Below, piece after piece: positions 266 to 21,063 of a DNA stretch of 21,114 nt (position 1 is its first letter; every line of letters begins with the position of its first letter). The notes below the pieces were generated by a model. The model searched no databases, was not told the origin of the DNA, and worked only from the letters and a program-made list of their open reading frames with translations. Source of the stretch: Fidelibacterota bacterium (GTDB lineage Bacteria > Fidelibacterota > Marinisomatia > Marinisomatales > UBA2128); contig JBHHUM010000035.1 in the NCBI GenBank assembly GCA_046861645.1, positions 1 through 21,114 of the forward strand, written 5' to 3'. The position numbers and the translations under genes are program-made.

Positions 266-658
266 TCAGATTGACTTAGTTTTCTTGTTATTACAGCATG
301 CTTTAAGCTTGCTGCAGCTCTTCTTGGATTCAGTCTTTTTCTCTAATTCACAATGGTCAAAAGCCGCCTTGATATCATCTGCAGAGTAGCCAATCTTAGT
401 GATAGCTGTCCTAATATCATCCAGCTTCAAAACTTCGTTGTTAAAGGTTACATCTGCTGAACCTCTCTTAAGATCAACGACTGCTTTATCCAATCCATCA
501 AGTTTTAGCAAGGCCGATTGAATCCGATCAACACAATCGTTACATCTCATTCCACTGATCTTTATTACGGCAGATTCAGCCTGAATAGGTTGAGCTACAC
601 TGCCGAATATCAAGACAAGTGCAATTCCTAAAATGACAATAAAAGATAATTTCTTCAT
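266..658 (-). CDS. Secreted heavy-metal-associated (HMA) domain protein, MerP/CopZ-like, with a Cys/Lys-rich tail
   Basis: Sec signal peptide (MKK, hydrophobic core, IQA|E), GMRCNDC metal-binding motif, terminal 'IGYSA' typical of HMA domains, GGAGG RBS upstream. Confidence 0.85.
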   Translation of the reverse strand: MKKLSFIVILGIALVLIFGSVAQPIQAESAVIKISGMRCNDCVDRIQSALLKLDGLDKAVVDLKRGSADVTFNNEVLKLDDIRTAITKIGYSADDIKAAFDHCELEKKTESKKSCSKLKACCNNKKTKSI

Positions 659-734: not shown

Positions 735-2015
735 TTAATTTACTAGAAATTCCTTAGCCATCTTTTCCCCTTCAGTGATATCAACCTTTCGTAGAAGGTA
801 CCAACCTATGGCAAATAGAATCAGGATAGATAGGATTCCAAGACGGGCATCCCCTGTCAAAATTGTTACCGAACCCATGAGCAATGGACCCAACACTGCT
901 GCGAATTTTCCCAACATATTAAAAAAACCAAAGAATTCGGCTGATTTCTCCACAGGTATCAATCTTGTATATAGACTACGACTTAAAGCCTGAATACCAC
1001 CCTGGAAAAGACCCACTAATATTGCCAAAACATAAAAATGAAGTTCTGTCCTCATAAAGTAACCCAGTAAAGTGATAAATCCATAAGCCATAATTGCAAT
1101 TTCCACAGCCAGTTTTGTTCCGATTCGTGAAGCAAACCAGTTATACAATAGAGCCGCAGGAAAGGCCACAAATTGAACAATGAGCAAGGCAGTTATTAAA
1201 GCGCTGTCATCAAATTGTAGGGACTTCCCATAATCGACAGCCATTTTTACAATGGTATCCACACCATCGATATAAAACCAGTAAGCAAGGAGAAAAAGTC
1301 CCACTACTTTCAGATACTTGATGTCCCGGAGAGTGTCCTGAAGTTGTCTCCAACCGAGAGGAAATGCCTTAAGAATTGAAGTCTTCTCATAGATTACCGG
1401 TTCACGTACAAACAACAGTACCGGCAGGGAAAAAACAGCCCACCAGATAGCAACCGAAACAAAGGCTAACTTGATAGCAGCAGCGCCATCACTGATACCA
1501 AATTTCTCCGGATGCAGGTACATTAAAACATTCACTAAAAAAAGCAGGCCCCCGCCAATATACCCCAGTGCAAATCCCAGTGAAGAGGCATAATCCACCT
1601 TGGATTTATCTGCAATTCCCGGCAGTAGAGAATCATAAAATATATTACCTCCCGCAAAACCGATAGACGCTACCACATAAAAGAGGACAGCCATCTGCCA
1701 GTACCCTTGAGCTACCAACCATAGACCGCCTGTCATAATGATACCCAGAAATGCAAATATGAAGAGAAACTTTTTTTTAGCCGTACCCCGGTCTGCTATC
1801 GCTCCGAGGAAGGGAGCCAAAGCAGCAACAATTATTGAAGCAAGGGAGTTAGCTAAACCAAGATAAAATGTACTCTCTTCAGGATTAGCCGGGTCAGCCC
1901 AGTATGCTTTGAAAAAGAGGGGGAAAAAACCTGCCATGACTGTCGTGGCAAAGGCAGAATTAGCCCAGTCGTACATGGCCCAGCTCCAGATGGTTTTTCT
2001 GGAGCCATTTATCAT
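735..2015 (-). CDS. MFS transporter, UMF1/Atg22-like family
   Basis: N-terminal WAMYDWANSAF, GAIAD, FYDSLLP, SSLGFALGYIGG, GGIQALSRS and EFFGFFNMLGKFAAVLGP motifs; about 12 hydrophobic segments. Start overlaps the upstream stop (TAATG). Confidence 0.85.
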   Translation of the reverse strand: MINGSRKTIWSWAMYDWANSAFATTVMAGFFPLFFKAYWADPANPEESTFYLGLANSLASIIVAALAPFLGAIADRGTAKKKFLFIFAFLGIIMTGGLWLVAQGYWQMAVLFYVVASIGFAGGNIFYDSLLPGIADKSKVDYASSLGFALGYIGGGLLFLVNVLMYLHPEKFGISDGAAAIKLAFVSVAIWWAVFSLPVLLFVREPVIYEKTSILKAFPLGWRQLQDTLRDIKYLKVVGLFLLAYWFYIDGVDTIVKMAVDYGKSLQFDDSALITALLIVQFVAFPAALLYNWFASRIGTKLAVEIAIMAYGFITLLGYFMRTELHFYVLAILVGLFQGGIQALSRSLYTRLIPVEKSAEFFGFFNMLGKFAAVLGPLLMGSVTILTGDARLGILSILILFAIGWYLLRKVDITEGEKMAKEFLVN

Positions 2016-3916
2016 TATTCTACTCCCTTCATGGTAACATCCATCCTTCTAATCACAAAATAGAACGCAATTCCAGCCGTAAAAACGAAGATGACCCCCA
2101 ACGATATATCTCCAAAGATCAGCTTACCAATCCCAAATAGAAAGCCCCAGACTACAACTGCACCTAGTGTTACATTCAGAAATGCTGGTAGCAGAGATTC
2201 AGATTCTATATCGGTAAATAATTTCCATCCGGGACCTCCCGGCTGCACCCGTAGGTAGAATTGCTGTAAAGTTTCAGTTTTCTCAGGATCAGTAAGGAAA
2301 GTAGTGATAAGCCAGATAACGGTCGTAAAAATGGTTGTAAAGATCATTTTTTCAGCAAAACCGCTGAAACCAAGGGATCCTGAAATAGAAGCTCCCACAA
2401 AGGCTGCTGTCATGGCTGAAATTTCACTCCAAGCATTAATTCGCCACCAGAACCAACGCAACATATACACTAATCCAGTACCTGCCCCCAGGGAAAGGAT
2501 CATTTCCCAACCCCCTTTAACACTTTCAAAAAAATAGGAAACTAAGATGGCAGCCATAGCCATCAAAATGATGGACAGACGGGAAACCAGAACGTAATGC
2601 TTCTCGGCAGATTCAGGAGAGTCAAACTTATTCCTTGGCTTCACAAATCTGATATAAAAGTCGTTCACCACATAGGAAGCTCCCCAATTGAGATGGGTGG
2701 AAACAGTGGACATAAAGGCTGAAATAAATGCCACTAACAGGAGTCCAAAGAGTCCCGGTTTCAATAAAGTCTTCATCAAGTAAGGGTATCCTTTTTCCCT
2801 ATCCGTTGCCACAAGGGTAGTACCTTTTTCAAACTTTTCGCCCTGAGTTACCTTGGATTCAGAAAACCAGCCGTCTAGTAGTTCTTCAATAGAAATATCT
2901 TCCAGTTCTCCGTTATCGTACTGGACAATAACGCTGTTTCCATCCACCTCCTGGACTATACCCGACTGCTGCGCCTTTTCGGTGACCTGAGGCAGAATGA
3001 CCAGGGAGACAAGTCCCACGAGAATCCATGGCCAGGGGCGTAAGGCGTAATGGGCAATATTAAAAAAAAGTGTAGCTTTTACGGCTTCTTTTTCATTTCT
3101 AGTGGAAAACATCCGTTGAGCGATGTAGCCACCCCCCCCTGGCTCTGCACCCGGATACCACGACACCCACCACTGCATCCCAATCCACACCAGTACAGTG
3201 CTGATCATGAGTGTAGGGTGATTAATAGGGGAAAATTGGATATAGGAATGACTTTCTCCAAAAGTTTCAACGAGTTTCTCCATAAGACCAGATACACCAT
3301 CTGTTTTTCCTAATGCTGCCACCATCAAAATAATTGATCCAGCCATAGCAACCATGAATTGCAGGAAATCAGTCACCACTACCCCCCACAAACCAGACAG
3401 GGTAATGTACACAGCTGTCATTCCATAGAGGATCAGAATAGTTTGCCAGGGTTCCACTCCCGTAACGACCTGTAGTACTTTTGACATACCAAGGGTTACC
3501 CATCCGAGGATTACACAATTTATAGGAAAAGCCAGATATATAGCCCGGAAACCTCTTAGTATGGAAGCCGGTTTACCTCCATAACGTATCTCAATAAATT
3601 CAACATCCGTCATCACCCCTGCCCGGTGCCACAGTCGGGCAAAGAAGAACACGGTGAACATCCCGGAAAGGACAAAATTCCACCAGATCCAGTTACCAGC
3701 AATACCATCCGAAGCCACGATACCGGTCACAGCTAAGGGCGTATCTGCAGCAAATGTCGTAGCCACCATGGATACTCCTGCTAACCACCATGGGATACTG
3801 CGTCCAGCTACAAAATACTCAGAGATATTCTGCCCGGCCCGCTTCATAAAGTACAGACCAATCCCCATGGCTATGAGGAAATATACCACTATTACAATCC
3901 AGTCAAGTGTTACCAT
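2015..3916 (-). CDS. Sodium:solute symporter (SSS/SLC5 family) with a large loop insertion
   Basis: EYFVAGRSIPWW, SMVATTFAADTP, GGGGYIAQRMFS and Na-site-like AFMSTVST motifs; many transmembrane segments; GGAG RBS. Confidence 0.88.
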   Translation of the reverse strand: MVTLDWIVIVVYFLIAMGIGLYFMKRAGQNISEYFVAGRSIPWWLAGVSMVATTFAADTPLAVTGIVASDGIAGNWIWWNFVLSGMFTVFFFARLWHRAGVMTDVEFIEIRYGGKPASILRGFRAIYLAFPINCVILGWVTLGMSKVLQVVTGVEPWQTILILYGMTAVYITLSGLWGVVVTDFLQFMVAMAGSIILMVAALGKTDGVSGLMEKLVETFGESHSYIQFSPINHPTLMISTVLVWIGMQWWVSWYPGAEPGGGGYIAQRMFSTRNEKEAVKATLFFNIAHYALRPWPWILVGLVSLVILPQVTEKAQQSGIVQEVDGNSVIVQYDNGELEDISIEELLDGWFSESKVTQGEKFEKGTTLVATDREKGYPYLMKTLLKPGLFGLLLVAFISAFMSTVSTHLNWGASYVVNDFYIRFVKPRNKFDSPESAEKHYVLVSRLSIILMAMAAILVSYFFESVKGGWEMILSLGAGTGLVYMLRWFWWRINAWSEISAMTAAFVGASISGSLGFSGFAEKMIFTTIFTTVIWLITTFLTDPEKTETLQQFYLRVQPGGPGWKLFTDIESESLLPAFLNVTLGAVVVWGFLFGIGKLIFGDISLGVIFVFTAGIAFYFVIRRMDVTMKGVE

Positions 3917-3925
3917 AGTTTCTCC

Positions 3926-5221
3926 CTAGTAAAGTAGAAATTTCTTTCGGAATTGGCTGAATCGGATTATGTCATGAGTCCATGTTGCAGACAGTTTAGC
4001 TGGATCCCGGTGCTGGGCCAGGAAAATTCGTAAGTAATCGTGTCCAAAGAGTTTATCAACATAGAAATTACCCGTCCATCGAAATTCATTGGGATAACTA
4101 CCAGAAATAATGGATAAAATAGTACTAGCAGTCAGGAGTGGATCAAACTTGTTCCAGTCAGTAACATTAATTTTAAGGCCATCACACACTTCACCACGAA
4201 AAACAGGTGATGGTAGATAGGGATTAAGAGAATCTGGGGTAAAAGTACCGGCTTCAAATTGGACACCAGGAAGCCAAATTATCTTTAATGTATTCAGAAT
4301 GGCTGTAGCGGAAAACCAGGGAGCTCCAACGAGAAAATAGGGATTATCGGTACCTAATCCAATAGAGAGGTTAGTACCTTGCAACAGTCCCATCCCTTCA
4401 TAAATCCTTAACGTTTCAAAATCCGGGATACCTGGTGCAGGAGGAATCCATGGCAGCTCTGTATCTGGAAAAACCATTCTACGTACCCATCCTATCAGGG
4501 GAATAACCTCAAGATTCACCCGTTGCGCCTGACGAGTCCATCCGGTTTCATTAATCATAATGGCAAACTCTCCCACAGTTAAACCGTGACGAATAGGAAC
4601 CAGATGATAACCGACAAAGGATTGGTATTTAGGCCGTACTATGGGGCCATCAATCTTAACACCACCCAGGGGATTGGGACGATCCAGGACCATTACTGGT
4701 ATTTCAGCAATAGCTGCAGCTTCCATCATCTTCGTTATCGTGGTCATAAAACTGAAATAGCGCAAACCTGGATCCTGGATGTCAATAAGAATTAAATCGA
4801 CACCATATAGATCAAGATTATCAGGTCTGAATCTGTGACCCCATAAATGTTTAATAGGGGCATCAAATCGCGGATCCTTACCACCTGCTGGTAATTGGAA
4901 TACATCTTCCGAGAAAGAAAAAATACCGTATTGTGGTGTAAAGATGACTTTTACAGATAGACTATCCTGATATTGAGCGAGAAGATCTAAAAGATGTATA
5001 CCCTTTCTATTAATAGAAGTTTGATTGGTCAGTACTGCCAGGGTCTTTCCATATAAGGGTTGAAACGAAAGTTCTTCCAGCACATCGAGCCCGGTTAGTA
5101 CCTGCTGTACAAAGCCGGTTTCTGGTAAAGGAAAAACTTTTGAATACTCGTACTTTTGAGAATAAGAAACAGAGTTTAAGAAAGCTATTATTAAGATTAC
5201 CAGGAAAACTTTAAGTTTCAC
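3926..5221 (-). CDS. DUF1343 / NamZ (exo-beta-N-acetylmuramidase, GH171)-like secreted protein; conserved glutamates appear substituted
   Basis: TGLDVL, TNQT, DIQD, VLDRPNPLGG, PIRHGLTVGE, GAPW, DKLFG and terminal FLLY match the DUF1343 pattern. N-terminal signal peptide; GTG start. Confidence 0.85.
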   Translation of the reverse strand: MKLKVFLVILIIAFLNSVSYSQKYEYSKVFPLPETGFVQQVLTGLDVLEELSFQPLYGKTLAVLTNQTSINRKGIHLLDLLAQYQDSLSVKVIFTPQYGIFSFSEDVFQLPAGGKDPRFDAPIKHLWGHRFRPDNLDLYGVDLILIDIQDPGLRYFSFMTTITKMMEAAAIAEIPVMVLDRPNPLGGVKIDGPIVRPKYQSFVGYHLVPIRHGLTVGEFAIMINETGWTRQAQRVNLEVIPLIGWVRRMVFPDTELPWIPPAPGIPDFETLRIYEGMGLLQGTNLSIGLGTDNPYFLVGAPWFSATAILNTLKIIWLPGVQFEAGTFTPDSLNPYLPSPVFRGEVCDGLKINVTDWNKFDPLLTASTILSIISGSYPNEFRWTGNFYVDKLFGHDYLRIFLAQHRDPAKLSATWTHDIIRFSQFRKKFLLY

Positions 5222-6638
5222 CTGAAGTCCTTATTTCTTCAAATCCTTTTGAGGCAAAAACCATGGATATTAAACCAATTGCAGTAAACAGTGGCCACGC
5301 TACAGATGTAAATCTCACTACGGCAATCATCACAACTAATGCCATAATAAAACCAAAAGTAACACTATTACGGTGGATATCTGGGGCTTTACGGCCTAAA
5401 TAGAAAAATCCTAACAGACCTCCATAAGTAAAAGAAGCGATAGACAAACCTACTTCTACTAGAGGGGTTTCTTTGGATGTGAACAACATTGCTCCCCCTA
5501 CCAATACCATAGCCCAAAATATTGACAAAAGTCGTGACATGGACACATTATATCTATCAGGGCGATTCTTTTTAAGCCAGTCGGTCATCGTGGAAGATGC
5601 CAAAGCGTTGATAGAGGAACTTAGTGTGGACATGGCAGCTGAAAAGATACCAGCAACAATAAACCCAGCTAGACCAGCCGGTAAATAATCTATGATGAAA
5701 GTAGAAAATACCTCGTCTGACTTCATACTACGCCCTCCAAAAAAGACCCAAATTCCAGCTCCAATCACCAGGAAAATAGCAAACTGAATAAAAGCCAAAA
5801 TGCCACTCCCAACCAGAGCTTTTTGTGCGCCTTTAATATTCTTGCATGAAAGTAAACGCTGAACCATCAGGTGATCTGTTCCGTGGGAGGCCATAGAGAG
5901 AATCATCCCACCAATTACAGCCGTTAGGAACTGGTAAGGATAAGCAATGATCTCATCGAAGCCACTATCAAAGGAAAAATGAATCATCGTTAACTTCCCT
6001 TTTTCCCCAGCTTCAATAAGTATTGTAGTCCAGCCACCATCCACCAGACCATTCAAAACTATAAAAACGGAAATAGCGCCTAACAGGTAAATACCAAATT
6101 GGATGGAGTCGGCCCAAATCACAGAGCGGATACCTCCTATCAGAGTATAAAAAAGGGTAAAAAGCCCAATGATGGCGATAGAGAGAGGATACGACCACCC
6201 CGTAATGATGGAGAGAGGAATAGCCGTCATAAAAAGGCGAACACCATCAGCAAGAATGCGCGTCCCCAGGAAAACCAGTGAAGCAAACCGCTGTACAAAA
6301 GATCCCCACCTGTTCCTGATAAATTCGTAAGTCGACTCTATCCCTTCCTCAAAGTAATGGGGAAGTAGCGCTTTAGCGATAAACCACCGGCCAATGATAT
6401 ATCCCAAAGCTAACTGCAAAAAGCCCAGATCTGTCTTGTATGCCAAACCGGGAATGGAGAGAAAAGTTAATACAGAGGTTTCTGTGGCAACCACAGAGAA
6501 CATCACCATCCACCAAGGTAGATTCCGGTCTCCAAGGAAAAAACTGGAGGCTGAGGTCTGCTTCCTGCCAGCCCAGGCGGCGATTAAAGTCACCAGGATC
6601 AGGTAAGTAAAAAGAACTATGAAATCAGCTTGCTGCAA
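5211..6638 (-). CDS. Sodium:solute symporter (SSS family), putative amino-sugar/PG-fragment uptake
   Basis: FFLGDRNLPWW, SVVATETS, GGIRSVIWAD, SHGTDHLMVQRLL and AAMSTLSSSINALAS motifs; TTG start. Substrate is inferred from gene context. Confidence 0.88.
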   Translation of the reverse strand: MQQADFIVLFTYLILVTLIAAWAGRKQTSASSFFLGDRNLPWWMVMFSVVATETSVLTFLSIPGLAYKTDLGFLQLALGYIIGRWFIAKALLPHYFEEGIESTYEFIRNRWGSFVQRFASLVFLGTRILADGVRLFMTAIPLSIITGWSYPLSIAIIGLFTLFYTLIGGIRSVIWADSIQFGIYLLGAISVFIVLNGLVDGGWTTILIEAGEKGKLTMIHFSFDSGFDEIIAYPYQFLTAVIGGMILSMASHGTDHLMVQRLLSCKNIKGAQKALVGSGILAFIQFAIFLVIGAGIWVFFGGRSMKSDEVFSTFIIDYLPAGLAGFIVAGIFSAAMSTLSSSINALASSTMTDWLKKNRPDRYNVSMSRLLSIFWAMVLVGGAMLFTSKETPLVEVGLSIASFTYGGLLGFFYLGRKAPDIHRNSVTFGFIMALVVMIAVVRFTSVAWPLFTAIGLISMVFASKGFEEIRTSGET

Positions 6639-6645
6639 TAATCTA

Positions 6646-9522
6646 TTATTCTGAAAGTAGAATTTTCATAACCTCATTGTAGAACGCCCGTCGAACTCCC
6701 CACATCTCAGCTTTCCACTTCTCAAATTTTTCGGGAGTTTCTCCCCGGGATGGATACACATGGTTAGTGAGTAATATGACGGCAATCTTTCGGTTAGGGT
6801 CAATCCACATGGAGGTGCCAGTGAAACCAGTGTGACCATAGCTGCCAGGTGAGAAATAATCTCCTGCCAGACTTCCCTCTTCCGAGGGAGTATCCCACCC
6901 TAAAGTCCGCTCGCTGTCTAATGGTATTCCCTGTCGACGGGTGAACTCCTTAATAGTTGAACGTCTAAAATAGCGGCGTCCAGCAAAAAAACCTTCATCC
7001 ATCATCATCTGCGCATATCTAGCCAGATCCAATGCTGTGGAAAACAATCCTGCATGTCCGGCTACTCCTCCCAATTGCCATGCTCTTTCATCATGGACAA
7101 TACCACGTACAAGACCTCTTTGATATCTTCTGTCTATTTCCGTTGGTGCAATTCGGGGTAGTAACGAAGGATCAGGATTAAACATGGTACTTTTCATTCC
7201 TAAAGGACGAAAAATGTAGCTCTCCGCCAGGTTATCTAAAGATCTTCCGGTTACCTTCTTTATTATCTTTCCCAGCAGAATGGGACCGAAATCGCTATAG
7301 ATGTACTTCTCACCCGGTACAGCTACAAGCGGGCGTTCTATTATGCTGGTCAGGATTTCTTCACCAGATGACCCCAGGGGGAATTCATCATAGGCCTGCA
7401 GCCCCGCAGAATGTGTGAGCATCAGTCGAATAGTAATCCTCTCTTTATCACCTCCTGAAAATTCAGGAATGAAATCTTTGATAGGTTCATCAAGGGGTAA
7501 TATTCTCTGTTCTACTAATTTCATCACAACTGGTGTCGTGGAGGTTACTTTCGTCAAGGAGGCAACATCATAGATAGTCTCAGCAGTCACCGCTGGTGAA
7601 TTATTATCGTAAGTTTGCCCGCCGGCTTGATAAGACCAAACCAGCTTTCCCTCCCTGATTACGGCTACCTGAGCACCAGGGAAAACGGAATCAGAAATGG
7701 CTTTATCCAAAATGTCTCTGGCCAGAGTGAAATCAAAAGTATCAGTCGTCATGGGCAGGATTTGTGGTTTGGATCGCATTATACCGTAACCAGTTGGTAG
7801 ATTGGCGCTAAGTCTAACCGGCAATTTCCCACTAATTGAAGTGGCACCAAAAATAGCATCAGCCATGGCATATTGGGAAATACTTCCATAACTATAACCA
7901 CATAAATAGGTGTCCAATTCATCAACATCAGCAACATAAGGACTTCCAAAGGAGACGACCACCACTGGGAGGCCTGAATCCTGTAGTTTTGTTATCAGTC
8001 GACGGTGAGATTGGTCTATGGAAACTGTTCCAAGATTCATCCTCACGCGGATTAATAAGGTAACCAGTATAAAATCACTTTCTACAGCACTTTCAATAAT
8101 TTCATCAACCATCAGCTCTGTTAGCGGTTGATAATAAAACGAGGTTTCCACATTTCCATGGGTACGAGACACAAGCGATCGAAAGGTACTTGAATAAGAG
8201 AGCATGCCATCACTGGTGGCTAGAAGAATATGGGACATTTTACGGCTTTTTCCCACGGGAATGGGAATCAAATTATTTTCATCCTTAACCAGTGTAATAG
8301 ATTTAGATGCAATCCGGGAAGCTATCGACAGATGCTCGTTATTCCCTATGATTTCCTTTGCTTCTGACAGGGAGACGAATCGATTATCAAATAATCCTAA
8401 TTCCTCTTTGGCTGCCAATATTCTCGAGACTGATTCATTAATTCGAGCTTCAGAAATTCTCCCCTTTCTAACAGCTAAGGTCACTTCAGACATCGCCTTA
8501 TCTACATCCATGGGTAGAAGAACTATATCTGATCCAGCTTCAATTGCCCGGATAGCTGCTTCGCCAACCCAAAAAGATTCCGTGATTCCTCCCATCTCCA
8601 GAGCATCAGTTACAATAAGACCCTGGTAACTTAATTTATCCCGTAAAAGGTCGTGACTCAGTGCAGGGGACAACGTAGCAGGAAGGCGAGTATCATCTAA
8701 AGACGGAACCGCAATATGAGCCGTCATTATCATTTTAACCCCAGCATCCACTGCTTTGCGGAAGGGAACCAGATCAATAGCTTCAAATTCTTCACGTCCT
8801 GCTGTAATTACCGGTAATGATGTGTGAGAATCCGTACCGGTGTTGCCATGACCTGGAAAATGTTTAGCAGTCGTAATTAAACCATTTTCCTGGGCACCTC
8901 TTATGAATTCCACTCCGAATTTAGAAACGGTTTCAGGAGAATCGCTGTAGGATCTGAAATTAATGATGGGGTTATCAGGATTACTATTCACATCCATCAC
9001 AGGAGCAAAAGTGATATGGACACCTGTTGCTCTGGCTTCTCTAGCGGTTATCTTGCCTTGTTGATAGGCAAGTTCCGGTTCTCCGGTTGCCGCTAAAGCC
9101 ATATTGGAAGGAAAAAGAGTCCCTGTATCCAACTGTTGACCTACACCTCGTTCATAGTCAGCAGCCACAAAAATAGGAATTTTTGCTAATGACTGCAGTT
9201 CATTGACATTGGAAATAGTACCGTGGATGTTACCAAAAAACTGGATGACACCTCCTATACCCCTCTCCTTTACTAATCGTTTGACTTCCCGGTAAGTATA
9301 ATCGGAACTGTTGTAAAAATTACCAGAATACCTAAGCATGAACATCTGTCCGACCTTTTCTTCTAAGGTTAGGTCCTCTAAAGAGGGTGGTCCCTTGATT
9401 TCTTCTGGTGGTTGAACCTTTATCTCCTCGGGAGGAGGTCCAGTAACTACTTCAGGAAGTGGCTTTACTGCACATCCTGCAATAAATAAAATCTGGATAA
9501 GACTTAAAAATAATTTTTGCAT
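6646..9522 (-). CDS. Lipoprotein: GH3 beta-N-acetylglucosaminidase (NagZ-type) fused to a C-terminal beta-lactamase-family serine hydrolase (AmiE-like)
   Basis: Lipobox IAGC. GH3 motifs ADYERG, FAPVMDVN, KHFPGHGNTGTDSH (NagZ Asp-His motif) and nucleophile TDALEM, then a GH3 C-domain. Serine hydrolase motifs ASLTK (SxxK), LTHSAG, YSD, GVAGHAGLFS and GHTGFTG. AGGAGG RBS. Confidence 0.92.
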   Translation of the reverse strand: MQKLFLSLIQILFIAGCAVKPLPEVVTGPPPEEIKVQPPEEIKGPPSLEDLTLEEKVGQMFMLRYSGNFYNSSDYTYREVKRLVKERGIGGVIQFFGNIHGTISNVNELQSLAKIPIFVAADYERGVGQQLDTGTLFPSNMALAATGEPELAYQQGKITAREARATGVHITFAPVMDVNSNPDNPIINFRSYSDSPETVSKFGVEFIRGAQENGLITTAKHFPGHGNTGTDSHTSLPVITAGREEFEAIDLVPFRKAVDAGVKMIMTAHIAVPSLDDTRLPATLSPALSHDLLRDKLSYQGLIVTDALEMGGITESFWVGEAAIRAIEAGSDIVLLPMDVDKAMSEVTLAVRKGRISEARINESVSRILAAKEELGLFDNRFVSLSEAKEIIGNNEHLSIASRIASKSITLVKDENNLIPIPVGKSRKMSHILLATSDGMLSYSSTFRSLVSRTHGNVETSFYYQPLTELMVDEIIESAVESDFILVTLLIRVRMNLGTVSIDQSHRRLITKLQDSGLPVVVVSFGSPYVADVDELDTYLCGYSYGSISQYAMADAIFGATSISGKLPVRLSANLPTGYGIMRSKPQILPMTTDTFDFTLARDILDKAISDSVFPGAQVAVIREGKLVWSYQAGGQTYDNNSPAVTAETIYDVASLTKVTSTTPVVMKLVEQRILPLDEPIKDFIPEFSGGDKERITIRLMLTHSAGLQAYDEFPLGSSGEEILTSIIERPLVAVPGEKYIYSDFGPILLGKIIKKVTGRSLDNLAESYIFRPLGMKSTMFNPDPSLLPRIAPTEIDRRYQRGLVRGIVHDERAWQLGGVAGHAGLFSTALDLARYAQMMMDEGFFAGRRYFRRSTIKEFTRRQGIPLDSERTLGWDTPSEEGSLAGDYFSPGSYGHTGFTGTSMWIDPNRKIAVILLTNHVYPSRGETPEKFEKWKAEMWGVRRAFYNEVMKILLSE

Positions 9523-9593: not shown

Positions 9594-10697
9594 CTAAACA
9601 TATACCCGTTCGGTTCGACCGCCAATAGCTGTCATTAGCACATAGGAGGTTGAGTCAATATCCACAGCAATATCTTCAATTCTGATGCGGTTTGTTCTAT
9701 CATCTCCAAAGAGCAAAACTTCCTCACCTTTCTCAGGATATTCATCGCCGAAGTTTACCATGAACTGGTCCATACATACTCGACCAGCAATAGGATAATT
9801 TTTCCCTCTGTACCCGACATAACCATGCTTATACCAATTCCTTGGAAACCCATCCGCAAATCCAGTTTGGATTACAGCAATATTCGCATCCGAGTCCGGA
9901 GCATAAACAGAACCATAACTAATGGGAGTCCCAGCCGTTACTCTCCTTACTGCTACTATAGGCCCTTTCAAGTTCATGACTGGCTCCACTTCAATGCATT
10001 CTGTAGTTTCATCAGAAGGATAAGCTCCATACATCAACATCCCTACTCGAACGAGGTTAAAAAAAGAGGTAGGTAAATTTAGAACACCTCCACTGTTGGC
10101 AATGTGAAAATATTTCACTTCAAAATGCAACTTCTGGCATAACTCAATTACCTTGTTAAAACGTGATATCTGCAGTTGAGCATACGCAGGATCACCTTCA
10201 TCCGAAGTGGCAAAATGGGAGTAAATTCCTTCTAATTCTACCAAAGGTACGCTGATTAATTTCTTCAAAACTCGTTCTACTTCTTCGAAGGGAATACCCA
10301 GACGTGACATTCCCGTATCTACTTTTAGATGGAATTTAGGACCCTTACCAGTTTTGCTAATGAATTGGGTTACTAATTTAAAGTCCTCTTTAGATGAAAA
10401 ATTGAGTGTAAAGTTTTGCTCAAGTGCTGGTGCTAACATATCCTCAGTTATCCGACAGAAAATCATAATTGGTTTCTCAATACCGCTTCGACGGAGCTCC
10501 AATGCTTCAGCAAGTGTAAAGACCCCGAGATAAACAACATTTTCTTTCTGAAGTCTTTTAGCAACTTCAATAGCACCATGACCGTAGGCGTTAGCTTTGA
10601 CTACTGGCATGACCTTAGCCTCGTCTACATGGGCTTGAATCTTTTGCAGATTACGAACTAAACGATCCAGATGAATTTCAGCGATGGGATTATACAA
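9594..10697 (-). CDS. alr: Alanine racemase
   Basis: PLP lysine motif VVKANAYGHG, HLKVDTGMSRLG, SHFATSDE, ISYG and GRVCMDQ. Start placed at TTG 10697 (GAGGT 5 nt upstream; 8-bp overlap with the upstream stop) rather than 10724. Confidence 0.92.
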   Translation of the reverse strand: MYNPIAEIHLDRLVRNLQKIQAHVDEAKVMPVVKANAYGHGAIEVAKRLQKENVVYLGVFTLAEALELRRSGIEKPIMIFCRITEDMLAPALEQNFTLNFSSKEDFKLVTQFISKTGKGPKFHLKVDTGMSRLGIPFEEVERVLKKLISVPLVELEGIYSHFATSDEGDPAYAQLQISRFNKVIELCQKLHFEVKYFHIANSGGVLNLPTSFFNLVRVGMLMYGAYPSDETTECIEVEPVMNLKGPIVAVRRVTAGTPISYGSVYAPDSDANIAVIQTGFADGFPRNWYKHGYVGYRGKNYPIAGRVCMDQFMVNFGDEYPEKGEEVLLFGDDRTNRIRIEDIAVDIDSTSYVLMTAIGGRTERVYV

Positions 10698-11652
10698 ATT
10701 GAACCTCAATGTGCTCAAAGTCAACTGGAGTGTAATTGCTTGAAGACAGAACTAAGCCACCGTATACGGGAAGGTAGGCAGATACTACCCATTCCACAGA
10801 ATTAAATTCATAGCTAAGTGATATTTCCATGCACTTTCGGTAGAAAAGTGATTTCTTAATTACCGATCCAGTGCATCCTAACTTGAGTTCTCCCTTTTGT
10901 TTATTCATTTTCTCATATAGTTCTATAATTAGATCTGCTAAATAGTCTGCTCCCCGTCGTACCAGATGATTAGCAACCATATTTCCATTTTCAGCAGCAT
11001 TCAAGATTACCGGTGTGCCTGAAGCTATCACTGGGGGTGGAGTTTCATCTCCAGAAAGTTCAGTTAAAAGTTCCTCGTAGTCATTGAAACCGAAATGTTT
11101 TACCAGCGCATTCCTGAGCTGAATATCGTCATCATTTAGGGATCGTTCTTTTGTAATTAACTCCATCAATGCAGTTTTTACTAACCAGTAACCACTCCCC
11201 TCATCACCAATTTTATGACCTAAACCTCCTGTAAAATAGATATGACCTTTTTCATCTGTCCCGATACCGACTGAACCCGTACCAGATAGAATCGTGATTC
11301 CAGCATTAGTACCCCAAATACCTCTATGAGCTAATTCAGAATCGTTTATCTGCAAAATATGAGCATGGGGAAAGAGGATATCCAGTTTTTCCTGGAATGC
11401 CAGTCGATTTTGAGGATTTCCTCTTCCAGCCATTCCGGCGACGACTTCATCTACATCATCTCGAGAAACACCCAGCACCAATGTTGCCTTGTGGATCAAA
11501 CGGTCCAATTCATCCAGGCAATCTTTACCGGTTACATTTGGATTTGATCCCTTCCCCGAGACTATAACACCAGACGACAATGATCTTTGTAATAACAGGA
11601 GATCAGTTGAAGTAGCCCCTCCATCTATCGAGACCGTTAGTCCTTTAGCCAT
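10690..11652 (-). CDS. BadF/BadG/BcrA/BcrD-type ATPase; GlcNAc/MurNAc kinase (NagK/MurK-like)
   Basis: IDGGATST, GMAG, IND, SGTGS and GGLGHKIGDEGSGYW motifs of this ASKHA kinase family. Substrate inferred from context. Confidence 0.8.
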   Translation of the reverse strand: MAKGLTVSIDGGATSTDLLLLQRSLSSGVIVSGKGSNPNVTGKDCLDELDRLIHKATLVLGVSRDDVDEVVAGMAGRGNPQNRLAFQEKLDILFPHAHILQINDSELAHRGIWGTNAGITILSGTGSVGIGTDEKGHIYFTGGLGHKIGDEGSGYWLVKTALMELITKERSLNDDDIQLRNALVKHFGFNDYEELLTELSGDETPPPVIASGTPVILNAAENGNMVANHLVRRGADYLADLIIELYEKMNKQKGELKLGCTGSVIKKSLFYRKCMEISLSYEFNSVEWVVSAYLPVYGGLVLSSSNYTPVDFEHIEVQFV

Positions 11653-12106
11653 AAGTTTGCTTCAGATATTTTTTCAATTCATCAAAATCACCAAACACTT
11701 TTGTACTACAGCCAAGGATCCAGGAACTCACCTGTGACAATGGCATGCCAAGGACGAGATATACAGGAATGTCTCGATGATAAGCGATGGTCACTTCCCC
11801 ATGCGTACCAGCACCTTTCCTGACGGCACGGTCCCAATAGCAAATCAGATAATCAATATCAGAACATAACACATCCAAATCCCGATCGATAAAGCGACGT
11901 ACTACTTTAAGAAATCTCTCGTAATCAGTCATTTTCCAAGAACGAAAATTCTGCTGTTCTTCCGGGTCAATCAAAGTTGCATCCACATCAAGAGGATTGA
12001 ACACTTCATGATTCAGACTCCCGAGCAACCAGCGTGACATTTCCTCTCGCCATTTTTTACCTTCATCGGGAGCATTTTCTATGGCACCAGATAGATATAC
12101 TTTCAT
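11645..12106 (-). CDS. Nucleoside 2-deoxyribosyltransferase-like (NDT superfamily) protein
   Basis: MKVYLSGAIE, WR, VFNP, IDRDL and GAGTHGEVTIAY...IPVY pattern. Start placed at ATG 12106, which overlaps the upstream TGA (ATGA); 153 aa. Confidence 0.7.
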   Translation of the reverse strand: MKVYLSGAIENAPDEGKKWREEMSRWLLGSLNHEVFNPLDVDATLIDPEEQQNFRSWKMTDYERFLKVVRRFIDRDLDVLCSDIDYLICYWDRAVRKGAGTHGEVTIAYHRDIPVYLVLGMPLSQVSSWILGCSTKVFGDFDELKKYLKQTYG

Positions 12107-12852
12107 CGGGAGCGGACCTTTCGGAACTGAGATGCAGACAAAATCACCAAAATTGCTATTTCGATTATCACTAATAACCACGACCAATCAGAAAGACTGC
12201 CCTCAAGAAACAAACTCCTTCCCGCAGTCATCAATTGGGATGTCGGAAGCCATGAAAGTATTGATGCCAAGTTAGCCGGATAGACCATTATCGGAATCAG
12301 CCATCCAGAACTAAAAATGATAAAGAGAATTACAGTAAATAGTCCGAAAAAATGACTACTCCTGCGATGACCAGTTAAAAGCCATAAGCAGACCAGGCTT
12401 GAACCCAAAATACCCACAACTACCGCGAACATCAAGGTACCCAGTAGGGGTAGAATATCAGGTAAGTGTCCTACCAAAATTATCAAAATGATCATTCCCC
12501 CTAAAGTCCGAAATAGAATTTCAAATGCACTGGAAGCAATTAATGAAATAACTATTAAAAAACTTCCATTTGGTGATGCAGCAAGATTATCAACAAATCC
12601 AGTGGAAATACTACGCTGTAAATCACTCCAGAGTGGCAGGATGCCGGCTAAAAGAGCTATAATGAAAAGTAAACCCGGAAAAAGCCAATCATCGGTAATT
12701 CCACTCATCTCCGTGTGTAACCATGTACCCATACTCATCTCCAGAGTAAAATAAAGAGCCAGAGGAAATAAAAGAAGAGTGGCTAAATGACCAGTCCAGT
12801 GGTGACGAATGTGCCAGACGCGTCGTCTTAGAAAGAGAAATACTAACATCAC
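12103..12852 (-). CDS. ABC-2 type transporter permease
   Basis: About 6 transmembrane segments, 'LFPGL', 'ASP' and 'FSSGWLIPI..YP' resembling ABC-2 permeases; translationally coupled to the upstream ATPase. Confidence 0.75.
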   Translation of the reverse strand: MMLVFLFLRRRVWHIRHHWTGHLATLLLFPLALYFTLEMSMGTWLHTEMSGITDDWLFPGLLFIIALLAGILPLWSDLQRSISTGFVDNLAASPNGSFLIVISLIASSAFEILFRTLGGMIILIILVGHLPDILPLLGTLMFAVVVGILGSSLVCLWLLTGHRRSSHFFGLFTVILFIIFSSGWLIPIMVYPANLASILSWLPTSQLMTAGRSLFLEGSLSDWSWLLVIIEIAILVILSASQFRKVRSR

Positions 12853-18108: not shown

Positions 18109-20379
18109 CTAAAAGGAATATACCAAGTATGCTCTGGCTATCAAAGAAGTAGATTCCGTTCCGTTTGCAGTCTTGTCTCTAAGTTCGCCTGTAGCTTTCA
18201 TATCGAGGTTCTCCAATATATTCCAGTTTAAACCCCCTTTGAAGCCCACCCAGGAAACCTCTGTAATACCGGTCCCGGAAGCAATATTGATACCTCCCAG
18301 TACCGTTAAACCTAACTTTTTAAATTGATAATCTCCATTCAATGATGTGGTAAAGAAAATCTGTTCGACTCTGTCATCAGGACCAATATTGAATCTACTA
18401 TTGTTGTTTGTCACCGTCAAATTAGTTGTTAGCGGGAATGGAAAACGGGTAGTTAAAGTCGAACTGATCACCTGAGAAGTTAATGAGGGATCGACGAAAT
18501 CCGGATCCCACTGCCGGTCTTTGTATTGATCTTCCTTATCCACCTGAACAAAAGTACCCATTAAAGTATGCGAAGCATTAAGCAGGTCGAAACGATAATT
18601 GAAACTAAGTAAAATGTTATTGAGGTGAGTTTTCTCCCTATTATCAGAAAATGTTACACTATCCAGTTCTGTTACCTCATTTATTCCATTATCTCGATCC
18701 ACTGTTTTAAAAGATAAATTAGCAGATGGTAATCCTGGTCCAGGCAAAAAGTTTAGTCCTGCCGAAAAGGTATTTTGATTGCGGACATTATCCGATGATT
18801 CCGAAATACCATTATTCTGGTGACGATAGCTAAGGGTCAGAAACAGGCGATTCTGTAGCAGGCGCAGTTTATCAGCAATTTTCCATTCACGATTGTCTGC
18901 TACAAGATAGGGATTAGCGAGTGAATTGAATTCTGGACCAACTTGAATAAATTCAAAATCGATCAAATTATCAAAATAGTTTAGTGAAGCCTTGGCTCTC
19001 AGAGCTAATGAAGGCATGGAAAATATAGCATCGCCAAGAGAGATAGCTGCACTATCAGAGAATAATTCTGGAGAAATAGGTGAGATAGGAACCATGTTAG
19101 GATTAATCACAAAAATATCCTCGAAGTCAGCAGGATCTGGAAAAGCACTGAGATCCATGAATCCACCAATAGAATTGTCTTTAAGGGTATCCAGGAGAGT
19201 GTCAAGTCCAGCCAGGGTTAGTGCCCCCTCAGAGATATCATTATTCAGTAAACTGAAGGCTGCTTCACCTTCCAGGGCGATACGTTTGTGATCAAAGAAG
19301 AAACCCAAATCCGTCGAAAGTACAATATTGTCCTTGGGTTTTACACCTGTCCAATCACTTACATCAGACACTACCATTTGAGCACCTAACTGGTTAGATA
19401 ACTCTGCATAGGTAAGTTTATCTCCCTCCTGTAACCCAAAAACGGAATCCGCAGAAGATATTTCAATCAAAGCATCATTAATTATGGGATCTACACTATT
19501 TACATTATCCTTTGTCTTCAAAAATGACAACCCGAATCGGAAAAGTTCACCTCGCCCAAATCCCAACCTTCCAGCTAAAAGTTCCTGGCGAAAAGTGTGA
19601 CCTTTACGTTGTAGAGTTAGAAATCTTGTTCCACCTGTATCTGACTCAACAGAATGTGAATATGCTTTATCAACTTCTTTACTACCCTGAATTGCACGAT
19701 TGATTTCACCCCTGATAAAACTGAGATTGATGGGACCTAACATCAGATGGAGATCTAAACCTCTTATTCTTTTACCATTTAAAGTAAAATAGGACAGGCG
19801 GGGATTAGAATCTCCAAGGTTTAGTGTGCCATATTTTCCAAAAGTCATTCCAAAACCATAAATATTACGGGGTTGCACCAGAGGATCCTCATCAGATGTG
19901 ATCTTCACTTTGGTTTTGAACTTTATTTCTTCCAAGACTGTACCTGACAATCCTATGGAGAGCTGGTTGACATTTAGAGATTCTTCATCAATCCGATCTA
20001 AACTGCTACTGGAAGTAACATTTCCGGAAATGCTAAACTTTGAACTTGCTGCCGCAGCCTTCCTTCCCAAAACGTCAAAAGACCAGGTAACAGAATCAGC
20101 TTTACCAGCGAACAGTTCTATATGGTGTGTACCGGGAACTAGTAGAGGAGGAACATAGCTGATCATATCAGGATCTATATAAGCACGAGCTGTAATATCT
20201 ACACCATCTACTCTTAACGTAATATCTTCTTTTAACACATTTTCCAGGCCAAAGAGTGATGCGGCAATCAGAATTTCATCTGCTTTCTGTTCAGAATTTG
20301 GCTCAGGACTCATGATTAGAATCTGCTGGCTGAACAAAACAGAAATAAGAAATGGTAGTTGGAAAAAAACTTTTTTCAT
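18109..20379 (-). CDS. Large hypothetical outer-membrane beta-barrel protein with an N-terminal Ig-like domain
   Basis: Signal peptide; ~100-aa beta-sandwich-like N-domain (SPEPN...LRVDGVDIT...PGTHHIEL...TWSFDV); many alternating beta strands; C-terminal AYLVYSF. Confidence 0.7.
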   Translation of the reverse strand: MKKVFFQLPFLISVLFSQQILIMSPEPNSEQKADEILIAASLFGLENVLKEDITLRVDGVDITARAYIDPDMISYVPPLLVPGTHHIELFAGKADSVTWSFDVLGRKAAAASSKFSISGNVTSSSSLDRIDEESLNVNQLSIGLSGTVLEEIKFKTKVKITSDEDPLVQPRNIYGFGMTFGKYGTLNLGDSNPRLSYFTLNGKRIRGLDLHLMLGPINLSFIRGEINRAIQGSKEVDKAYSHSVESDTGGTRFLTLQRKGHTFRQELLAGRLGFGRGELFRFGLSFLKTKDNVNSVDPIINDALIEISSADSVFGLQEGDKLTYAELSNQLGAQMVVSDVSDWTGVKPKDNIVLSTDLGFFFDHKRIALEGEAAFSLLNNDISEGALTLAGLDTLLDTLKDNSIGGFMDLSAFPDPADFEDIFVINPNMVPISPISPELFSDSAAISLGDAIFSMPSLALRAKASLNYFDNLIDFEFIQVGPEFNSLANPYLVADNREWKIADKLRLLQNRLFLTLSYRHQNNGISESSDNVRNQNTFSAGLNFLPGPGLPSANLSFKTVDRDNGINEVTELDSVTFSDNREKTHLNNILLSFNYRFDLLNASHTLMGTFVQVDKEDQYKDRQWDPDFVDPSLTSQVISSTLTTRFPFPLTTNLTVTNNNSRFNIGPDDRVEQIFFTTSLNGDYQFKKLGLTVLGGINIASGTGITEVSWVGFKGGLNWNILENLDMKATGELRDKTANGTESTSLIARAYLVYSF

Positions 20380-20388
20380 CTCGGGATC

Positions 20389-21063
20389 CTACTCAGTAAA
20401 CTTAATAATAAGTTCTTTGGTATTTCCGCTATCATCCTCGAATTGGAAGCGTAATTCTCTAATTTCTTCTTCCTCATCTCCACCGGTACTTTCCAATTCT
20501 TCTTCTGTGGTAGTGTGAGTTTCCAGCTCACCAGTAGTGGATGAAATGGCTGTTTCGCCCCCACTAAGACTGGTTATTTCCCCACTAACGCTATTCTCAA
20601 CATCTACTAATCCTTCCAGTAAAATAAATACATCACCTCCAGTAGGATCACTGGAAACAATAATTTCTGTACCTTTAATAGAAGCCACAGAGGTAGGAGT
20701 AGAGATAATAAATTGCTTACCTTCCTGAGGAGATACATTAGCTCTTAACACACCATAGCTCAGGTCTACAGATTTGGAAATACCATCAGTTGTCCGTTGA
20801 CCGCCCACTGTAAATTCAGAATCCTCTCGAATTTTAAGTACACTTTTATCATCAAGGAACATAATCATAGCCATTGATTTCTTCCCGGTAGAAATCTTAT
20901 CCTGATCTTGGACAGGATTTCCAGGCTTCAGCGGTTTTTTTTCAGTTTCATCAGACCGCTGAAGTACGGCATCACCTTTAGCCTTTATTGTCATAGCTAC
21001 TTTATCAGCTCCAGAAAGAAAAGAACACCCTATTATGAGAATAATTATTTGGAGTCGTTTCAT
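20389..21063 (-). CDS. Secreted FecR-domain protein with an acidic C-terminal tail
   Basis: Signal peptide; FecR-like pattern DKISTG...FLDDKSVLKIREDSEF...LSYG...FIISTPTSVASIKGTE...LLEGLVDV...LSGGE; GAGG RBS. Confidence 0.85.
   Translation of the reverse strand: MKRLQIIILIIGCSFLSGADKVAMTIKAKGDAVLQRSDETEKKPLKPGNPVQDQDKISTGKKSMAMIMFLDDKSVLKIREDSEFTVGGQRTTDGISKSVDLSYGVLRANVSPQEGKQFIISTPTSVASIKGTEIIVSSDPTGGDVFILLEGLVDVENSVSGEITSLSGGETAISSTTGELETHTTTEEELESTGGDEEEEIRELRFQFEDDSGNTKELIIKFTE

Follow-up and report, generated by a model that had tools for sequence, protein, structure and literature searches.

We analysed a 21,114-nucleotide stretch of a Fidelibacterota genome (contig JBHHUM010000035.1 of assembly GCA_046861645.1; the whole stretch is called the window and its genome G000), in which a gene for a NamZ-like protein of glycoside hydrolase family 171 (GH171) lies between genes for two sodium:solute symporters (SSS), SSS2 and SSS1. 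This protein and its orthologues in the order Marinisomatales, together referred to as NamZ*, show a decayed active-site cleft and are probably not normal muramidases. We tentatively favour the reading that NamZ* acts as a non-catalytic periplasmic helper, capturing a wall sugar of the N-acetylmuramic acid (MurNAc) type at SSS2. The three genes very probably form the import segment of a peptidoglycan-sugar salvage operon. An earlier note on this DNA had described three coupled genes with two distinct transporters, and both points are borne out. The frames are open and all on the minus strand, SSS2 and the NamZ-like gene overlap by 11 bp (5211-5221), a 9-bp gap (3917-3925) separates the latter from SSS1, and SSS1 and SSS2 share 25% identity over 291 columns. 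Pfam assigns SSF to both transporters and NamZ_N plus NamZ_C to the middle protein. Contigs from four runs of one sample, a possible source of the assembly, span the stretch without indels and without variants at the Gln97, Gln281 and Leu289 codons.

Loss of conserved residues in NamZ* extends across the order. Among its 61 genomes, 52 had a match to the NamZ-like protein and 44 a close orthologue (E below 1e-116) with an open frame; 40 of the 43 orthologue loci other than the window's own were compared, giving 41 orthologues with the window. As a reference we used 139 full-length NamZ domains, out of 149 cluster representatives, found with the canonical paralogue of G000. This reference has 29 polar columns conserved at 85% or more. 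The window protein matches it at 18 of them and the 41 orthologues at 16-22, compared with 26-29 both in 19 syntenic copies from other orders and in 21 unlinked paralogues. Conserved non-polar columns are almost all retained in the window protein (33/34). Glu97, His98, Glu281 and Arg289 (window numbering) occur together in 120/139 references versus 0/120 NamZ* matches. On a nine-residue shortlist chosen after seeing the data (E97, H98, S125, Y127, Y156, S262, N264, E281 and R289), the window protein keeps none and the orthologues three at most, and all nine are present in 19/19 syntenic outgroup copies. The earlier note's view that this copy looks catalytically disarmed thus agrees with the order-wide pattern. 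Its statement that the conserved acidic residues are missing is correct in part: Glu97 and Glu281 are replaced by Gln, but Asp147, Asp150, Asp180 and Glu218 are retained.

The pattern of change differs between the two sides of the pocket. Position 97 is Glu in 134/139 references, and among the 41 orthologues it is Glu in 30 and Gln in 11; it is exclusively one or the other in all 41 and in 120/120 NamZ* matches, which would fit hydrogen bonding rather than acid catalysis. Positions 98 and 127 are mostly aromatic, and D147, Q149, D150 and R154 are near-invariant. On the C-domain side, S262, N264, E281 and R289 are not kept and drift without a new consensus. Arg at 289 falls from 130/139 references to 3/41 orthologues, with H, I, L, Q, K, R, F, E, V and T all represented there. 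From the alignments, the Glu-to-Gln change is not the defining event; the whole cleft has drifted across the order. The homology model of PMC8054146 gives Glu92 as a 'putative' catalytic residue of Bacillus subtilis NamZ and Arg279 as pointing into the cavity. Judged by position, these probably correspond to 97 and 289. Of the GH171 features, the window protein has both NamZ domains and the two-domain Rossmann-like fold, and it has neither the cleft Arg of the C-domain nor the putative catalytic Glu that ends strand 2. Its model has a mean predicted local distance difference test (pLDDT) score of 91.5 and a template modelling (TM) score of 0.85 to structure 4K05, and its N-terminus (MK-K, a hydrophobic run and a polar end) looks by eye like a signal peptide.

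NamZ* is maintained under purifying selection. Within the genus, the proportion of nonsynonymous differences (pN) is 0.13-0.15 and that of synonymous differences (pS) is saturated at 0.76-0.82, with pN slightly above that of SSS2 and the downstream major facilitator superfamily (MFS) gene (0.08-0.10). In two FastTree trees of 117 and 82 sampled rows (Shimodaira-Hasegawa-like support), NamZ* forms one branch (support 100) inside the group of intact NamZ linked to SSS2 (support 95 and 98). Second NamZ copies in the order occupy a separate branch and are intact in 20/20 cases checked, as is that of G000 (L001). Since the operon copy is decayed throughout the clade and the unlinked copies are intact, the catalytic signature was most likely lost from the operon copy at the base of the order, with the unlinked copy retaining it. 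G000 also carries a third copy (L003, G000:C111:22871-24133), which derives from the unlinked paralogue branch, has decayed separately and keeps 18/29 polar residues. Another variant occurs in G080 and G122 (L128 and L132), where two NamZ genes flank a gene of ~815 aa and the first NamZ has SPH/MEE..V in place of SPN/Y..E..R.

The usual neighbour of NamZ* is SSS2, and the association of NamZ-type proteins with an SSS that the earlier note had drawn is supported by both synteny and gene fusions. At the 40 NamZ* loci, SSS2 lies directly upstream in 28 and one gene away in one; two have a divergent SSS instead, one reaches a contig end and eight lack it. A search for long SSS2-like relatives gave 239 proteins, and fusions were counted among the matches listed (the best 120 of 239) plus one further protein. 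A NamZ domain was present in 104 of these 121, in 76 clusters at the C-terminus and fully intact, and in 28 at the N-terminus and decayed. C-terminal fusions have one extra hydrophobic helix ahead of the NamZ domain, and N-terminal fusions have a signal-like start and a linker of ~10 residues into the first helix; from this topology both would place the domain in the periplasm. Of 18 C-terminal joints inspected by eye, two have a lipobox-like Cys at their end, and in most no cleavage motif stands out. The decayed N-terminal domains branch apart from NamZ* in the tree, which indicates that they decayed independently, and they and L003 lose much the same residues as NamZ*. A decayed NamZ domain whose PEHG loop cannot be aligned is fused to the SSS2 N-terminus in L096:9648-12317 (G037), L206, L207, L208 and P0272-P0299; directly after the fusion, L096, L206 and L208 have a separate NamZ* gene. 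Other SSS2-family proteins are fused to beta-lactamase-fold domains (PF13354 or PF00144) and not to NamZ (P0304, P0305, P0308, P0311, P0339 and some of P0358-P0370).

The neighbours of SSS2 suggest its substrate. It shares the context of MurT-type importers, being encoded with NamZ and a MurNAc-processing kinase, and it likely imports MurNAc. Of 80 SSS2 loci, ~10 from Chlorobiota have an intact namZ immediately ahead of SSS2. In the two of these tested, the genes upstream are AmgK-like and MurU-like, by best or near-best matches that fall below curated cut-offs. The resulting array of amgK-like, murU-like, intact namZ and SSS2 genes (L218:1848-6392, L235 and other Chlorobiota loci) may give green sulfur bacteria a compact route for MurNAc salvage.

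Together, these genes suggest how the helper would work. In the periplasm, as expected from their families, the NagZ/AmiE-type fusion encoded in the operon and the intact NamZ encoded elsewhere would cut wall fragments down to monosaccharides. NamZ* retains the fold; of the pocket it has kept the N-domain half and lost the C-domain half, so it would hold the sugar rather than cut it. SSS2 would then take in MurNAc and SSS1 anhydro-MurNAc or N-acetylglucosamine (GlcNAc), and the imported sugars would be processed by the operon kinase, AnmK and MurQ, all of which are encoded in the genome. A wider version, in which a MurNAc-cutting glycosidase at the mouth of a sodium symporter became a non-catalytic capture subunit at least twice, as free NamZ* across the order and as the tethered N-terminal domain, is possible, and we consider it on balance unlikely.

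Several results weigh against NamZ* as a capture helper. The literature examined contained no GH171 catalytic residue that had been tested experimentally, and sequence did not predict the specificity of Tannerella forsythia NamZ1 (TfNamZ1). Glu97 is retained in 30/41 orthologues and both glutamates in 8/41, and Arg289 drifts freely, which would be unexpected in a protein that binds MurNAc tightly. The N-terminal domains, which decayed separately, have likewise kept D147, Q149, R154, D180, R181, N183 and E218, so these residues may be structural. Pairing with SSS2 is not strict either: at 8/40 NamZ* loci another gene stands upstream, G004 and G044 (96% and 94% complete) have NamZ* but yielded no SSS2 orthologue, and SSS2 also occurs without an adjacent NamZ. 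An exported protein follows NamZ* in 28/40 loci, as often as SSS2 precedes it. The fusion counts are redundant, collapsing to 19 C-terminal and two N-terminal groups at 70% identity among the matches listed; the NamZ* clade contains none of the fused NamZ domains, and at some C-terminal joints the sequence resembles a cleavable signal.

A different role is that of a scaffold: NamZ* would not bind sugar but would be an enzyme that is dead and retained to pair, through a new surface, with SSS2, the NagZ/AmiE fusion, the intact paralogue or the exported protein encoded downstream. Ten clade-specific residues (K164, R196, Q200, Y205, H206, E225, W228, W382, Q403 and F424) are near-invariant in NamZ*, at 97-100% in 120 proteins versus at most 27% in references, and may outline a site of contact with another protein. 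According to PMC8054146, NamZ of B. subtilis forms a dimer. The exported family occurs in 31/61 genomes; in 30 it is encoded on the same contig as NamZ*, directly after it. However, this family was not found in the genus of G000 or in four other families that keep NamZ*, and the Glu/Gln-only and aromatic constraints at positions 97, 98 and 127 suggest that the pocket is still used; we think a scaffold unlikely. The exported protein itself (L073:10596-12209 and 27 other loci, directly after NamZ*) is unannotated and ~380-590 aa long. A Phenol_MetA_deg-like lead covering 24% of one Atlas cluster makes it a candidate outer-membrane channel for wall fragments.

About equally unlikely, in our view, is that NamZ* remains an enzyme of altered chemistry or substrate, such as a slow or disaccharide-releasing muramidase that uses other residues. 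The GH171 catalytic residues are putative, and Val stands in place of Arg at the equivalent of 289 in BF0371 (4K05), which among solved structures is the closest relative of the active TfNamZ1. D147, D150, D180, E218 and R154 are invariant or nearly so in NamZ*, and the purifying selection on the protein would also suit an enzyme. Against this, 4K05 keeps the PEHG, SLYG and SP motifs and the second Glu, several NamZ* cleft positions have no new consensus, and the window protein has neither glutamate. An unrelated moonlighting role, with NamZ* beside SSS2 through inherited gene order, appears improbable. NamZ* does occupy a position inherited from the ancestral operon and neither of its neighbours is obligatory, but a decayed NamZ domain has been fused independently to SSS2, and the adjacency of NamZ* and SSS2 outlasts other rearrangements, such as the loss of GH3 and kinase genes from many loci.

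In the earlier note, the dead NamZ was proposed to hand sugar to the SSS, perhaps by docking on a soluble domain inserted in SSS1. SSS1 matches SGLT1 and vSGLT, and both SSS1 and SSS2 exceed the Pfam cut-off for SSF and fall just below that for TIGR00813 (139 and 175 versus 184). The insertion is present, at 59 aa rather than the 62 given earlier. It is placed just ahead of the segment that aligns with the 'IAYPTLVVELMP' loop of SGLT1, which we take to face outward in the SSS topology. Its Atlas model is close in fold to a small RNA polymerase beta domain (TM 0.76-0.84 when predicted models are compared, with sub-threshold sequence support), presumably a fold of the barrel-sandwich hybrid type.

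The distribution of the insert does not follow that of NamZ*. It was found in 2/307 genomes of the class, G000 and G003, with one marginal match in another protein. SSS1 follows NamZ* in these same two of 41 genomes, and G003 has Glu97. The predicted co-occurrence of the Glu-to-Gln change and the insert across genomes therefore fails: Gln97 is found in 11/41 orthologues, and among these 11 only that of the window's genome has SSS1 as a neighbour. In G001 and G002, of the same genus, NamZ* is followed directly by the MFS gene. G077, G096 and G148 have SSS2, a fully intact NamZ and an insert-less SSS1 in this order, and three genomes of another class have GH3, SSS2 and SSS1 with no NamZ between. 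Nonsynonymous divergence (dN) is 0.35 in the insert versus 0.10 in the rest of SSS1, a ~3.5-fold faster rate, and pN (0.28) remains below pS (0.57). Loop length at this site varies among 30 relatives (39, 41, 51-52 or 98 residues), and 28/28 inspected paralogues from other classes carry an unrelated insert there. From these patterns the insert was added recently, in two genomes of a single genus, and nothing points to a connection with NamZ*; we can only guess that it serves as a passive or local lid on the outer gate. Docking on it is largely refuted by co-occurrence and is highly improbable, even given the adjacency in G000 and G003, the periplasmic location that both partners would have and the pN below pS, because the insert is confined to two genomes against an order-wide NamZ*, 39/41 NamZ* lack an SSS1 neighbour, the insert-bearing G003 has Glu97, and the domain evolves fast at a site of freely varying length; the partner that recurs is SSS2, which has no insert. 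The neighbours of SSS1 make it a likely importer of anhydro-MurNAc or GlcNAc: orthologues lie between GH3 and anmK in four genomes and directly adjoin anmK in one. Separately, an SSS subfamily of ~640 aa from other classes of the phylum (L144-L171) bears a different acidic insert in the SSS1 loop, ending in a conserved (E/Q/D)-K/N/T/R-YEN-T-(V/I)-DPG motif.

To our knowledge, SSS carriers are generally regarded as independent of helper proteins in the periplasm. The closest concept is that of tripartite ATP-independent periplasmic (TRAP) transporters, binding-protein-dependent secondary transporters in which a periplasmic protein feeds an ion-driven carrier. TRAP systems differ in the folds of both carrier and binding protein; here the helper would be a repurposed glycosidase, and it is not obligatory for the SSS2 family. 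The structures BF0371 (4K05) and BF0379 (4JJA) share the two-domain fold of NamZ* (TM 0.85 and 0.77, 28% identity), but both keep PEHG and the second Glu where the window protein has PQYG and Gln281.

The operon logic is already known from B. subtilis and T. forsythia. In T. forsythia, namZ1 neighbours murT, murK and murQ (10.1101/2021.12.02.470905; PMC5790795; PMC7670621), so that an exported GH171 gene likewise stands beside a phosphotransferase system (PTS)-independent MurNAc importer, with a BcrAD/BadFG kinase and MurQ. TfNamZ1 is active, however, whereas the adjacent NamZ of the window is decayed and an intact copy lies elsewhere; the window operon also has two SSS genes, and ampG was not found in G000. 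MurT is called a sodium symporter superfamily member in the introduction of PMC5790795 and an MFS protein in its discussion; it is at most a putative orthologue of SSS2. The B. subtilis cluster murQ-murR-murP-amiE-nagZ-namZ (PMC8054146) also encodes exported NagZ-, AmiE- and NamZ-type proteins with the importer of their product. It differs in PTS uptake by MurP and an active NamZ, in contrast to SSS importers, a fused NagZ/AmiE and a decayed NamZ in the window. The one isolate of the phylum depends on muropeptides and lives on wall fragments of other bacteria (PMC11652737). Our literature search, whose coverage excluded some key texts, turned up no NamZ-SSS fusion and no NamZ pseudoenzyme.

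If NamZ* does raise the affinity of SSS2, it would mark a new route from enzyme to binding protein, and as a capture subunit it would let an SSS scavenge cell-wall sugar at low concentration with the aid of something like a binding protein. Even without a helper role, the comparison of intact with repeatedly decayed copies yields nine candidate GH171 active-site residues, where the literature examined names two, from a model. NamZ annotations in these genomes probably overcount muramidases, and two SSS subfamilies are nominated as importers of MurNAc and of anhydro-MurNAc or GlcNAc.

The remaining genes of the locus (Table 1) support the earlier assignment to cell-wall-sugar salvage. The co-directional run comprises polA, ATP-binding cassette (ABC) genes, an unannotated 180-aa open reading frame (ORF), the BcrAD/BadFG kinase, alr, a fusion of GH3 and a beta-lactamase fold, SSS2, the NamZ-like gene, SSS1, an ATG22-like MFS gene and a gene for an HMA protein. 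Matches to named proteins indicate Marinimicrobia/Fidelibacterota. The order kinase-alr-NagZ/AmiE-SSS2-NamZ-SSS1-MFS recurs across the class. In the fusion translation we recognised what we take to be the relevant motifs, KHFPGHG..D.H and SxxK. G000 has murA, anmK and murQ; ampG was not found in this genome, which is 94% complete. BcrAD/BadFG is the family of T. forsythia MurK (PMC5790795).

Table 1. Features of the salvage locus, in window coordinates
Feature	Position	Strand	Basis
SSS2, 475-aa sodium:solute symporter, no insert	5211..6638	-	Pfam SSF
NamZ*, 431-aa GH171-fold protein, signal-peptide-like N-terminus	3926..5221	-	Pfam NamZ_N/NamZ_C, model, tree
Gln97 codon CAA, family Glu (PEHG) replaced, giving PQYG	4931..4933	-	alignment
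Gln281 codon CAA, Glu in 131/139 reference proteins	4379..4381	-	alignment
Leu289 codon, Arg in 130/139 reference proteins	4355..4357	-	alignment
SSS1, 633-aa sodium:solute symporter, second subfamily	2015..3916	-	Pfam SSF
59-aa acidic insert in SSS1, residues 312-370, 13 D/E and 4 K/R	2807..2983	-	alignment with closest insert-less relatives
GH3 (NagZ-like) and beta-lactamase-fold (AmiE-like) fusion, same operon	6646..9522	-	Pfam/profile matches
Alanine racemase (alr), same operon	9594..10724	-	TIGR00492 above cut-off
BcrAD/BadFG-family sugar kinase, same operon	10690..11652	-	PF01869
ATG22-like MFS transporter, conserved downstream operon member	735..2015	-	Pfam, synteny
HMA gene	266-658	-	domain match

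The ATG22-like MFS gene comes after NamZ or NamZ* in most loci class-wide, often with the HMA gene, and may encode a further carrier of wall fragments. The 180-aa ORF (11645-12187, minus strand) is conserved beside alr in many orthologous loci and has no Pfam or NCBIfam match; we assume a resemblance to nucleoside 2-deoxyribosyltransferase-like proteins. Further along the window, after a FecR-domain gene, an unannotated exported protein of 756 aa (18109-21063, minus strand) shows alternating polar and hydrophobic runs and is possibly a beta-barrel.

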